DNA from: Octopus vulgaris
Taxonomy: Eukaryota
Direction: 5' to 3'
DNA length: 64,000 nt
NCBI GenBank assembly: GCA_951406725.2
Contig: OX597823.1
Span: forward strand, 33,666,001 to 33,730,000
Shown: positions 2,713 to 63,112 of the stretch, in pieces
Layout of the letters: each line of letters opens with the position of its first letter
Numbering within the stretch: the first letter of the stretch is position 1
Notes under the pieces: generated by a model
Seen by the model: only the letters and a program-made list of their open reading frames with translations
What the model was told of the DNA's origin: nothing
Database searches by the model: none
Position numbers and translations under genes: made by a program

Positions 2713-2716
<4 letters not shown>
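2553..2716 (+). mobile_element. RTE-type LINE 3' tail fragment
   Basis: Same tail family, ending in (gat)n. Confidence 0.8.
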
Positions 2717-2745
<29 letters not shown>

Positions 2746-2751
<6 letters not shown>

Positions 2752-2937
2752 GAATTTACAGAAATACAAAAGACGAAGACAGGTGGTGTAGACAACAAAC
2801 AGATCTATCAGTTTAATGCTCAGGAAGTAAAAAAGTCTTTAACATTTCGAGCCTACACTCTTCCACAGGAAGGAACACAGAAATAAACAGGGAGAGAAAA
2901 TAGAAAAAGGTTTAGTGGCTAGCAATCTACCTTGGCA
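2746..2937 (-). mobile_element. Family D short repeat carrying a hammerhead-like motif (A6U variant), TA-tailed
   Basis: One of 7 homologous copies. Minus strand 2837-2872 reads cttc-CTGTGGA-a-gagt-gtag-gctc-GAAA-tgTT-aaag. Confidence 0.7.
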
Positions 2938-2949
2938 AAAGTTTACATA

Positions 2950-4202: not shown

Positions 4203-4812
4203 TGTGTGTGTATTAAATTATTTCAACTTCCTTCAGTATTTGATGCAATATATTTACAGATATTAAGGTTCATTTGTTGCCATAGTTACGCCAAAGACTG
4301 GCAAAGAGAGAGAATGGTTATTCTTTACAATTCACTGATTCCAGACAGATCCGTTATCAGTAATCTTGTTACTGTTAGTATTAAACATAATTTTAGGGAT
4401 GGTGGTGGTGGTGGTGGTGGTAGTAGTGGTGTCGGGGTGGGTGGGGGTTGGATGGCCAAGGTTTGTGCGTTTGGTCAATATATGGAATATGTTTATCATT
4501 AGATGCATCCATATTATTACGAGAGAAGTGGCAAGGGAGATGATGCGAATGTAATGATGGAGACTGTGTATTATATAATAACAGAAGAGTCTTAAGAGAT
4601 TCAGATACAATGCTTCACAGCATTTGTTGCAGTGCATTGGGATCTGAGTTCAATCTCAGCTAAGATCAACTTTGCATATTAATCATTTTGGGGTTGATAA
4701 AAAAACTGCCAATCCAAGATGATGGACTGGCAAAACTGTATGAATGTGGTATTTGTTACAACTCTCTCTCTCTCTCTCTCATTGTTCTATGTCCAAATCT
4801 TTCTCTGATTTA

Positions 4813-5005
4813 GTTGGACTTTATAAAAAAAACAGCAAAAGATGAAGATGGGTGTATAAACAACAAACAGGTATATTAGATTAACACTTGGAAAGATGAG
4901 AAAGTCTTTTATGTTTCAAGCCTATACTCTTCAACAGAAAGGAACATGAGCAAATAAACAGAGAGAGAATTAAAAAAAAGATTTAGTGGCGAGCGATCAA
5001 TCATT
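4813..5005 (-). mobile_element. Family D repeat (hammerhead-like)
   Basis: Homologous to 2746-2937; motif at 4906-4941. Confidence 0.7.
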
Positions 5006-5469
5006 TCTCTGGTTTACTTGAGTTATAGACTTAACCCCTCAACCAGCTTCATACCCACTTCCATCATCTAACACCCTGGGTGCTTTTAGTGGGGTCAACT
5101 CTGTGACAAGCATTTGGACTAGGTTTGAAAGTAAAATTCCTGGCTGTGACTTTGGACTTTCATGCAAATTCCTATAAACCCTTCCAGAAACTAAATGAGA
5201 GGCTGACGTATATTGACACAACTTCCTGCCATCAGCCATAGTGGTTAAAAATCTTAGTGAAGGGTGTTAGTAGAAGGTTTCCTAACTTATCTCCAAGAAT
5301 GGTGGTTTTATTTAATGCTTGTAGCTCTGATTTTTAACAAGGCCCTGGTTGCTAACAGTTTCAAAGATGGCATTAGTTACAAATCTTATCTTAATCTCAC
5401 TGAGAGAAATCACTACCAAAAGGTCATATGATTCACATCCTTGCTTTCTCTTAATGTTAAGACTTGATA

Positions 5470-9581: not shown

Positions 9582-9930
9582 TATAATTATAAATAAGGGC
9601 AAAAAGAGAAAAATTTCTTTGCCAATATGCTGAAAAATAGACACTAAATCTTCTAAACACATAAAACATTTTCACTTATTTTATTACACCACGTGTCAAA
9701 ACGAGGAAAGCAAGCTAACAGAAATTCATAAAAATTCATAAAACTATATTTTTATGAATTTCAATTAGCTTACTTTCCTCGTTTCAACCCGTGCTGTAAT
9801 AATATAAGTGAATATATTTTATGTGGTTAGACAATTTAGCATCTATTTTTCAGCATATTCTTTTCTACTTTATTTTTCAGCATATCGGCACAGATATTCT
9901 TTTCTGTTTGCCCTTATCTTTAATTGTATA
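9582..9930. repeat. Fold-back element with diverged inverted arms of about 165 bp, within TA-rich flanks
   Basis: Left arm ...ataagggcaaa...tatgctgaaaaatag...aacgaggaaag..gaaattcataaaaat is mirrored on the right. Duplicate at 15832-16181. Confidence 0.8.
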
Positions 9931-15033: not shown

Positions 15034-16173
15034 AATTGAGAAAATGTGGCATCTCAAGGCGGTTACAATACCAGTGATCGTAGGAGCACTAGGAATGATC
15101 AAGAAGGGAACCGAAAATTATATGAGAATGATCCCTGGCTTACCATCCCTGCAAGAAGTGCAAAAGATTGTCTTAACTGGTACATCACACGTATTGAGAA
15201 GAGCATTGTCGATGTGAGAACTGTTGCTGCTCATGTATTTTAATTTAACTTTAAAAAAAAAAAAAAATATGAACGAACTACTGAGTTTGGTTTAATGGCC
15301 TACCAATATACACTATGAGTTTCTTTGCCCTAGGAGTCGGGAAGACACTCGGCAAGAAATGGAAGAAAATTTGAAAGAAGAAAAAAAAAGTAATAATAAT
15401 AATAATAATAATAAAGCCTTGTGAGTAGATTTGGTAGATGGAAACAGAAAGAAGCTTGTCATATACATGTGTGTGTGTCTGTGTTTGTCCCTCCAACATC
15501 ACTTGACAACTGATGCTAGTGTGTTTACATCCCCGTAACTTAGCAGTTCAGCAAAAGAAACCAATAGAATAAGTACTAGGCTTACAAAGAATAAGTCCTG
15601 GGGTCGATTTTTCGACTAAAGGCAGTGCTCCAGCATGGCCACAGACAAATGACTTAAACAAAAGAATATGTGTGTGTGTCTATGTGTGTATATACATATA
15701 TATATATGTGTGTGTGTATGTGTGTGTGTATATATATATATATATACTTGTAATGTAAGGATAAATTTTTATTAAAAGATTTTATCAGTGGCCAGCATAC
15801 GAAAAAATACCTTTTAAGGTGAAAATTATAAATATAATTATAAATAAGGGCAAAAAGAGAAAAATTTCTTTGCCAATATGCTGAAAAATAGACACTAAAT
15901 CTTCTAAACACATAAAACATTTTCACTTATTTTATTACACCACGTGTCAAAACGAGGAAAGCAAGCTAACAGAAATTCATAAAAATTCATAAAACTATAT
16001 TTTTATGAATTTCAATTAGCTTACTTTCCTCGTTTCAACCCGTGCTGTAATAATATAAGTGAATATATTTTATGTGGTTAGACAATTTAGCATCTATTTT
16101 TCAGCATATTCTTTTCTACTTTATTTTTCAGCATATCGGCACAGATATTCTTTTCTGTTTGCCCTTATCTTTA

Positions 16174-21369: not shown

Positions 21370-21375
<6 letters not shown>

Positions 21376-21528
21376 GAATTTACAAAAAAACAAAAGACGA
21401 AGACAGGTGTGTAAACAACAAACAGATGTATTAGTTTAACGCTCGGGAAGTGAGAAAGTCTTTTAAGTTTCAAGCTTATGTTCTTCGACAGAAAGGAACA
21501 CAGAAATAAACAGGGAGAGAAAATAGAA
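21370..21528 (-). mobile_element. Family D repeat
   Basis: Homology to other copies; core CTGTCGA; (TA)n on both sides. Confidence 0.7.
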
Positions 21529-21600
21529 TATATATATATATATATACCTATACATACATGTATATATACTTACACACACACACACACATTTATATATATG

Positions 21601-21668
<68 letters not shown>

Positions 21669-21670
<2 letters not shown>

Positions 21671-21861
21671 GCGAGAATTCACAAAAAACCAAAAGATGAA
21701 GAAAGGTAGTGTAGACAACAAACAGATGTATTGGTTTAATGCATGGGAGGTGAAAAAGTCTTTAACGTTTTGAGCCTATGCTCTTCCACGGAATGGAACA
21801 TAGAAAGAAACAAGGAGAGAAAATAAAGAATGTGTAGTCGCTAGCGATCTATCATGGCGAA
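21669..21861 (-). mobile_element. Family D repeat
   Basis: Homology to other copies; (TA)n flanks. Confidence 0.7.
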
Positions 21862-21986
21862 TATATATTTATATATACATGTATATATAAATATATATAT
21901 GTATGTATATATCGTTTTGGGGATCACCAATACTTTATTATGTCCCCATCTTTCTAACTCTCCTGTCTGACTACCTCTGTCCAGCC

Positions 21987-22176
21987 AATTGCCATGATTG
22001 ACAGCTTGCCTCTAAAGCATTTTTTGTTCTCTCTGTGTTTATTTCCTCGTGTTCCTTTCTGTTGAAGATCATAGGCTCAAAACATAAATGACTTTCTCAC
22101 CTTTCCGACCATTAAACTAATACACCTGCTTGTTGTTTATACACCTGTCTTTGTCTTTTGTTTTTCTGTAAATTCC

Positions 22177-22181
<5 letters not shown>
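21987..22181 (+). mobile_element. Family D repeat, head-to-head with the previous copy
   Basis: cttt-CTGTTGA-a-gatc-atag-gctc-aAAA-caTA; ends in (TA)n. Confidence 0.7.
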
Positions 22182-36190: not shown

Positions 36191-36472
36191 TTAGGAGATG
36201 AAGAATTATGTACATTATTTACATTATTTATGTTTGACGGGGATATGGCCTAGTGGTTAAGAGTGCAGGCTACCAAACCTAAGATTCTGAGTTCGATTCC
36301 AGGCAGTGACCTGAATAATAATAATAATAATAATAACAACAACAACATCAAAAAATACCTTAGGAGAACCCAAGACACCTGATAAAGGCTGGAAGGTATA
36401 TCAGCCGAAATGTTGTGTTAACAACAAACAAGACGAGGACAAATATCCGTCAAAAGTAAATAATGTAAATAA
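36191..36472 (+). mobile_element. Family C: inverted 3' arm + tRNA-like head + (AAT)n + hammerhead-like motif
   Basis: Box A tggcctagtgg, box B gttcgattcc; motif at 36374-36419 gacac-CTGATaA-a-ggctg..cagcc-GAAA-tgTT-gtgtt; terminal inverted arms. Confidence 0.8.
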
Positions 36473-37382: not shown

Positions 37383-37649
37383 TTATTTACATTATTTACA
37401 TTTGACAGATATTTGTCCTCATCTTGTTTGTTGTTAACACAACATTTTGGCTGATATACCCTCCAGCCTTCATCAGGTGTTTTGAGGAAATTTCAAACCT
37501 GGGTTCTCATTCATAAGGTATTTGAAATTTCCCCAAGACACCTGATGAAGGCTGGAGGGTATATCAGCCGAAAGATAAGGACAAATATCTGTCAAATGTG
37601 AATAATGTAAATAATGTACATAATTCCTCATCTCTTGAATATAGAACTG
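37383..37649. mobile_element. Family C tail-out inverted pair with two hammerhead-like motifs
   Basis: Minus motif at 37436-37481, plus motif at 37537-37573 (CTGATGA-a-ggctg..cagcc-GAAA, then a deletion). Confidence 0.8.
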
Positions 37650-49189: not shown

Positions 49190-49487
49190 CAGTTCTATAT
49201 TTAAGAGATGAAGAATTATGTACATTATTTACATTATTTACATTTGACAGGCATATGGCGTAGTGGTTAAGAGCGCGGGCTACTAACCCCAAGATTCCAA
49301 GTTCGATTCCAGGCAGTGACCTGAATAATAATAATAATAATAATAACATTGAAAAATACCTGAGGAATGAGAACCCAGGTTCGAAATTTCCCCAAGACAC
49401 CTGATGAAGGCTGGACAGCCAAAATGTTGTGTTAACAACAAACAAGATGAGGATAAATATCCGTCAAATGTAAATAATGTAAATAAT
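49190..49487 (+). mobile_element. Family C: inverted 3' arm + tRNA-like head + hammerhead-like motif
   Basis: Head at 49250-49321 (tggcgtagtgg; gttcgattcc). Motif at 49396-49433 gacac-CTGATGA-a-ggctg-ga-cagcc-aAAA-tgTT-gtgtt. Confidence 0.82.
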
Positions 49488-57275: not shown

Positions 57276-57328
<53 letters not shown>

Positions 57329-57332
<4 letters not shown>

Positions 57333-57523
57333 TCGCCATGATTGACCTCTAGCTCCAAAAGTTTTTTTTATTCTCTCACTGTTTATTTTCTCATGCTCCT
57401 TTCTGTTGAAGAGCGTAGGCTCAAAATGTAAAAAACTTTCTCACCTTCCCGAGAGTCAAACTAATACACCTGCTTGTTGTTTATACACTTGTCTTCGTCT
57501 TGTTTTCCTGTAAATTTTAACTA
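57329..57523 (+). mobile_element. Family D repeat
   Basis: 57399-57434 cttt-CTGTTGA-a-gagc-gtag-gctc-aAAA-tgTA-aaaa; (TA)n flanks. Confidence 0.72.
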
Positions 57524-62874: not shown

Positions 62875-63066
62875 TAGTTTAAATTTACAGCAAAACAAAA
62901 GATGAAGAGAGGTGTATGAACAACAAAAAGGTGTATTAGTTTGACGGTTGGGAAAGTGAGAAAGTCTTTAATGTTTCGAGCCTATGCTCTTCAACAGAAA
63001 GAAATATGAGGAAATAAACAGAGAGAGAATAAAAAAACTTGTGTTGTAGCAATCATTCATGGTGAC
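62875..63066 (-). mobile_element. Family D repeat
   Basis: Minus strand 62966-63001 cttt-CTGTTGA-a-gagc-atag-gctc-GAAA-caTT-aaag; (TA)n flanks. Confidence 0.75.
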
Positions 63067-63067
63067 T

Positions 63068-63112
<45 letters not shown>

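Follow-up and report, generated by a model that had tools for sequence, protein, structure and literature searches.

Within the 64,000-nucleotide stretch of the Octopus vulgaris genome considered here (the window), a first-pass annotation had pointed out seven copies of a short hammerhead-like repeat, all with U at core position 6, and had left two options: a functional variant ribozyme, or a catalytically dead fold kept as a recognition signal for reverse transcriptase (RT). The genome yields evidence for each of the two. Position 6 departs from the core definition C3 U4 G5 A6 N7 G8 A9, and the remaining core positions match it. The locus bears on the role of hammerheads in Penelope-like elements (PLEs).

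All seven copies are present at the places reported, with pairwise identities of 71-88%. The 36-nt motif, searched with at most 6 mismatches, gives 7 matches in the window versus none in any of 20 local dinucleotide-block shuffles; a profile of the seven copies detects no additional member within the window. The earlier reading of single positions also stands: position 6 is U in 7/7 copies, position 7 varies (G, U, C, G, U, U and U in window order), and position 17 is A or U, never G (U, A, A, U, A, A and U). Six of the copies abut (TA)n as described, their 3' ends touching a run or lying at most about 10 nt from it; the exception is the copy at 4813. The consensus that had been drawn up is right in having U6 throughout but is matched exactly by no single copy: three carry G12A, one carries U4C, several have damaged stems, and decay, mostly at CpG, has affected every one of them. 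As observations the seven are not independent, since they represent three or four subfamilies of one lineage, and U6 in all of them is a consequence of common descent.

The hammerhead sense lies on the minus strand in five copies (2746, 4813, 21370, 21669 and 62875). The first of these (2746..2939, minus strand) is a short pseudo-LTR copy of a Neptune-type PLE, of G7/U17 type with flanks between those of subfamilies S2 and S3, whose 3' end lies at a (TA)n run. Its minimal type I hammerhead motif, counted from stem I to stem I, spans 2837..2872 on the minus strand (C3 at 2868, U6 at 2865), with the predicted cut after position 17 at 2841 (minus strand). The (TA)n tract at the fixed 3' end (2716..2747, unstranded) is the putative insertion target and matches a short TATATA at the same point of the full-length element. 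The second copy (4811..5010, minus strand; motif 4906-4941) is a short pseudo-LTR copy of subfamily S1 whose 3' end is without (TA)n. It is followed by a 5'-truncated S2 copy with C7/A17 (21370..21531, minus strand; motif 21460-21495) and by a short S3 copy whose motif (21760-21795) also carries U4C and G12A (21669..21862, minus strand). The copy reported at 21987 starts further up, near 21912, and is a longer 5'-truncated S1 copy (21912..22181, plus strand; motif 22055-22090) standing head to head with the 21669 copy. The remaining two are short pseudo-LTR copies, one of S1 (57327..57523, plus strand; motif 57399-57434) and one of an old subfamily, S1/S0 (62875..63068, minus strand; motif 62966-63001). 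The head-to-head pair (21669-22181) thus joins copies of different subfamilies with about 50 bp between them, and inverted pairs are also found at other loci.

Rfam reports no hammerhead in the window among the 150 of 216 matches listed, and none for a 71-nt stretch around the 21370 copy with E-values up to 10. Chance or a CpG artefact as the origin of the motif is rejected by the shuffles, the genome-wide U6 counts and the subfamily data given below. A different hammerhead-like repeat, its core the canonical CUGAUGA and its stem II longer, also occurs in the window, at 36379 (plus strand), 37449-37570 (both strands), and 49360 and 49401 (plus strand). At 49360 and 49401 the two cores stand in tandem; the stretch 37449-37570 forms a long inverted repeat. 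Identical matches separated by 6.25 kb (about 9694-9789 and 15945-16040; 11933 and 18192) suggest that this part was recently duplicated in tandem or was doubled in the assembly. The window includes 100 N.

The first-pass annotation had treated the repeat as a family of its own and had proposed a search for a parent PLE. A separate family it is not: the repeat is the pseudo-LTR of an autonomous Neptune-type Penelope-like retrotransposon, full-length copies of which, with RT and GIY-YIG endonuclease (EN), are found elsewhere in the 2.8 Gb genome, with U6 in both repeats. In the 30 closest relatives the 3' end is sharp and leads into (TA)n; the 5' ends are ragged. Going upstream, the longer relatives continue through a UTR of about 600-900 nt into a GIY-YIG endonuclease frame and then RT. 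A search with the ORF gave 30 loci, 25 of which have the repeat downstream, with U6 cores. A separate non-autonomous retrozyme or SINE is rejected, as the longer copies extend into the element's 3' UTR and ORF.

The 5' portion of one young copy, used as query, returned 40 scored matches at 99-100% identity among 956 candidates, and eleven stretches around ten of these matches were inspected for full units. The full unit consists of repeat, 5' UTR, ORF, 3' UTR and repeat, and measures 4.4-4.6 kb in most cases. Seven of the 11 long loci have two or three same-strand motifs spaced 4.4-4.9 kb apart, three in tandem in one of them (L298), and U6 is found in 16/16 motifs of the lineage across the ten long loci that have such a motif. 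In none of the eleven stretches does one ORF run without a break from its likely start and on through the endonuclease; YIDD and YIGQT both lie within open frames in 6/11. Pfam recognises RVT_1 at locus L059 (31.2 bits, above cutoff) and GIY-YIG at L058 (18 bits, E 0.0037, below cutoff), finds no match for a shorter EN piece, and a PDB sequence search with the ORF gives no match either. The protein of L302 has a C-X4-C-X2-C linker between RT and EN as well as a DKG motif. A CX2-5CxxC linker and a DKG motif are features defining the Neptune clade in Craig et al. (2021, PMC8557442); the linker also occurs in Nematis. The RT and EN segments are closest, by eye, to the Neptune rows of the supplementary alignment of that paper. 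The features examined point to a Neptune-type PLE, with the clade placed by the linker, the DKG motif and this by-eye comparison. The clade as described there shares with the octopus element a single ORF with RT followed by GIY-YIG, the linker and the DKG motif, partial tandems, inverted truncated neighbours and microsatellite targets. Canonical hammerheads are given as universal in these clades, whereas the octopus lineage has amplified with a non-canonical core. We infer that (TA)n tracts are the insertion target: 23/27 copies chosen independently of the motif have (TA)3+ at the 3' end, in a genome that is itself TA-rich. The family, as far as its presence is concerned, is also found in contigs from sequence runs labelled with four organisms.

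The element is very abundant and recently active. Exact patterns counted over the whole genome give 19,836 matches with U6 and 886 with another base at position 6 (271 with A6); the same pattern test at position 4, serving as a control, gives 413, so that ordinary decay explains about half of the non-U6 matches. In one hundred 10-kb stretches at fixed genome positions there are 22 profile matches, or 20 with a 3'-segment model, corresponding by extrapolation to roughly 55,000-60,000 copies genome-wide; the copy density of the window is about five times that of this sample. U6 is present in 57/58 copies chosen independently of the motif. An older A6 subfamily as direct ancestor is unsupported, the oldest flank type being mostly U6 (U6 85, C6 10 and A6 5 in the first 100 of 418 matches), and most A6 copies sit inside U6 subfamilies, where they look like back-mutations. 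One copy (L194:1506) combines the upstream flank of a sister lineage with the motif and downstream part of the U6 lineage, a possible chimera with its junction at the core.

This sister lineage is a second repeat, with loop II UCC, that has at least 13,461 matches in the genome (examples on the minus strand: L069:4316-4350, L012:2373-2407 and L237:6511-6545). The first 100 listed matches carry A6 in 98 cases and U4C in 73, and G17 occurs in four related copies of an apparently older group. Since no long copy with an ORF of the sister's own was found among the loci examined, its identity as a PLE rests on the motif, the flank similarity and the (TA)n ends. Homology with the sister shows the U6 motif to descend from an ordinary CUGANGA minimal hammerhead, and the two together show that core changes likely to lower the rate are common in the lineages of this genome. 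U4C lowers activity but permits viroid infectivity (PMC3088659), and G17 impairs minimal hammerheads and is tolerated in tertiary-stabilised ones (PMC3884650).

The closest relatives of the motif are the minimal hammerheads in the pseudo-LTRs of metazoan PLEs, described as slow and in need of dimers (Cervera and de la Pena 2014, PMC4209133). The octopus motif shares with them the type I topology and short stem I, the extra nucleotide between A9 and G10.1 with a G10.1-C11.1 pair, the palindromic ACGU without a stem III loop, the presence in both PLE repeats and the many solo copies. Its stem II has only 4 bp. The consensus given there is CUGANGA, with U3-A8 as a reported core variant, whereas U6 occurs in about 96% of the matching octopus copies. 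Judged by its letters, the motif therefore resembles minimal PLE hammerheads but fails the core definition at position 6 and is not a canonical member. A term search of one supplement of that paper found no octopus row and no A6U; a 2026 octopus repeat paper, searched by terms, does not mention hammerhead or ribozyme; and we found no literature on a lineage-wide fixed A6U core, though Lünse et al. (2017), on small PLE hammerhead variants, may list changes at A6.

What U6 does to catalysis can be approached through related variants. Position 6 is structural, and A6C retains low activity that is rescued by Mn2+ (PMC3088659, PMC7151607); in a pairwise mutagenesis study every single mutant of the CUGA turn had low activity (PMC9901934), which counts against cutting by U6. 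The natural A6C hammerhead of phage Bcep176 (Perreault 2011, PMC3088659; Naghdi 2020, PMC7151607) likewise combines a change at position 6 with an otherwise intact core, and has low but real activity, better in Mn2+. In contrast to this single phage ribozyme with A6C and a full stem III, the octopus lineage has A6U in tens of thousands of retrotransposon copies whose monomer is without stem III, known from sequence only. Folding of a 38-nt fragment predicts a pair between U6 and A15.1 by which the junction is closed to form a rod, the pairing probability rising from 0.11 (A6) to 0.98 (U6); A6U is one of 5/45 single core changes with this effect. When flanks of 40 nt are included, 1/4 subfamily examples, the youngest, is still predicted to close. 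The idea that A6U, U4C and G17 converge on one closed fold is unsupported for U4C in its own sister context.

The ends of the copies indicate how they are made. At the point matching the 3' end of the short copies, the full-length element continues as TTATATATT into the 5' UTR. Because the element continues there, the 3' end of the short copies is an internal site, some 100 nt below the cut site, that resembles the (TA)n target. The 5' ends pile up at an ATG-bearing point about 75-85 nt above the core, with 70/202 copies ending within 15 nt around an Inr-like word, and 40/202 copies extend more than 40 nt beyond this pile-up. We infer that transcription starts at the pile-up. Copies beginning at the cut site are nearly absent: 1/236 by the 3'-segment model, 0/27 in the unbiased set and 0/41 in the sister lineage. 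These counts show that uncut RNA is the usual template; they do not show that cutting is absent, as most of the 236 copies come from loci chosen for a motif-bearing copy and cut RNA may simply degrade. A CTAAT word followed by a pyrimidine-rich stretch lies downstream of the motif in the 3' half of the repeat, for example within 21370-21430 of the window (minus strand), and is kept in both lineages. It resembles a branch point with its polypyrimidine tract. Penelope 5' UTRs can hold introns.

A comparable situation is described for PAc, a Poseidon element of the anole (Frangieh et al. 2024, PMC11167929), whose hammerhead cuts only with the element's protein. There too reverse transcription starts internally, downstream of the hammerhead, at AT-rich targets, uncut RNA is the dominant template with no reads ending at the cut site, and catalytic mutants leave insertion in vitro unaffected. 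PAc differs in belonging to the Poseidon clade, and the portions of that study used here mention no position 6 change. Activity with the protein has been demonstrated for PAc, whereas the octopus U6 motif is a matter of genomic letters.

On balance we lean towards reading the minimal type I hammerhead motif of this PLE pseudo-LTR, with its lineage-fixed A6U, as a slow, protein-assisted self-cutter, uncut RNA being the usual template. Transcription would start at the 5'-end pile-up above the core, and the element's endonuclease would nick (TA)n. Reverse transcription would then begin inside the RNA, at the short UAUAUA located some 100 nt downstream of the cut site, and continue through the uncut motif; with the upstream repeat as source this would give copies of ~195 bp as in the window, with the downstream repeat longer ones. 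Two motifs may pair via the ACGU palindrome and so build stem III. U6 would lower the rate, perhaps adding the closed monomer fold in which it pairs with A15.1, so that cutting would be rare, late or dependent on the element's protein.

How far the motif behaves as a ribozyme can be judged from the changes between subfamilies. Sorting 213 copies by flank letters gave eight subfamilies (9 copies unassigned) that form a divergence ladder from 13.5% down to 3.0%; in an endonuclease tree, which includes some badly cut rows, nesting is supported for the four youngest and older copies are left unresolved. The majority base at position 6 is U in all eight subfamilies. Between successive majorities 0/34 columns of core, stems and loop II change versus 40/100 gap-free flank columns (Fisher p 7e-7), a comparison in which the subfamilies are defined on flanks, the T-rich alignment inflates flank changes, and the motif itself served to select many copies, among them almost the whole oldest group. 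Repeated with the 58 unbiased copies, in seven subfamilies with the oldest dropped, it gives 3/34 motif columns versus 34/88 flank columns (p 0.001), the 3 motif changes all being CpG decay within one group of three copies. Constraint acts on the motif, and the expectation that stems and core are conserved above the family background is borne out. C3, G8, G12, A13, A14 and the ACGU palindrome are unchanging, and G12 A13 A14, A15.1, U16.1 and the NUH cut site are kept in all eight majorities, as are stem II (GAGC/GCUC) and the bulged A; stem II is invariant and hence without covariation. In stem I one pair changes on both sides between lineages in a single event, the outer pair being C-G in the U6 lineage (CUUU/AAAG in 168/229) versus G-C in the sister (GUUU/AAAC in 12/17), and three U-A pairs are invariant.

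The two positions left free by catalysis in hammerhead numbering, 7 and 17, are the ones that move. Position 7 has five changes, in which all four bases occur, and so exceeds every flank column (nominal p 5e-4 against the flank mean, about 0.06 after allowing for all columns); position 17 changes three times, between A and U only; among the 58 unbiased copies it is A in 36, U in 19, C in 1 and a gap in 2, with G17 in 0/58. The freedom at these positions, which the first-pass annotation had taken as that of a real hammerhead, is thus genuine at the subfamily level and more than CpG decay. The turnover at position 7 might conceivably reflect escape from a host sequence reader or an RT error hot spot.

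The same pattern also bears on the main rival reading, which we regard as possible, if on the unlikely side: the motif would not cut, and its fold would give the RT-endonuclease or a host factor a sequence-specific handle, or ACGU would serve in RNA-RNA pairing, at a point about 100 nt above the start of reverse transcription. A handle of this kind would not obviously call for freedom at just positions 7 and 17, nor for the avoidance of G17 in this lineage (0/58). Loop II GUAG, unchanged in the U6 lineage, and the bulged A are nevertheless as invariant as the core, and the loop tells against a self-cutter: its letters should be free under catalysis, and their sameness is what sequence-specific binding would predict. 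The copies that read through the cut site agree with a handle as well, but the mostly-A6 sister is also at 0/41 there, so read-through is not particular to U6. Three rate-lowering changes (A6U, U4C and G17) are common in two lineages of the genome, and those of the sister, U4C and G17, suggest weak catalytic constraint, which also tells against the self-cutter. The predicted closing of the junction into a rod by A6U (5/45 core changes; 0.11 to 0.98) would suit a non-cutting fold, but the prediction fails for U4C in its own context. Finally, the catalytic mutants of another PLE insert normally in vitro (PMC11167929), which, like the near absence of copies beginning at the cut site, speaks for a handle and against the self-cutter.

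Improbable in our view is a constraint on DNA or on transcript processing, by which the 36 nt would be a downstream promoter element or a processing signal belonging to the pseudo-LTR promoter, with an inherited hammerhead look. The motif does lie about 65-75 nt below the ATG-bearing pile-up of 5' ends (70/202 copies within 15 nt), and other short flank blocks are unchanged too, the longest run measuring 13 columns; but the pattern of fixed and free columns tracks ribozyme positions, and stem I changes on both sides between lineages. That the motif died with A6U and owes its sameness to descent from a few masters is very improbable and largely refuted, since along the ladder from 13.5% to 3% about 40% of flank columns change between successive masters and none of the motif, even though individual copies decay freely, mostly at CpG.

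Returning to the slow self-cutter, a still more tentative proposal, and one that we consider rather doubtful, is that A6U was selected as a turn-down of cutting: the monomer rod would spare the full RNA as template, and the protein or a tandem partner would open it for cutting. The sister lineages would, under such selection, have reached low rates via other core changes, U4C and G17.

Insertions of this lineage number in the tens of thousands and include very recent ones, despite a core change expected to cripple cutting, and every ribozyme position other than 6 has been kept. Searches that demand an exact core overlook one of this genome's large hammerhead-like families. The genome offers natural U6, A6, C6, U4C and G17 versions in one sequence frame, by which the need for cutting, and its speed, become testable. 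If the U6 RNA is dead, a ribozyme fold has been kept for a non-catalytic job. If the turn-down holds, slow rather than fast cutting would be the selected state of Penelope hammerheads, and the octopus genome would contain tens of thousands of natural test variants, all of them missed by CUGANGA descriptors.
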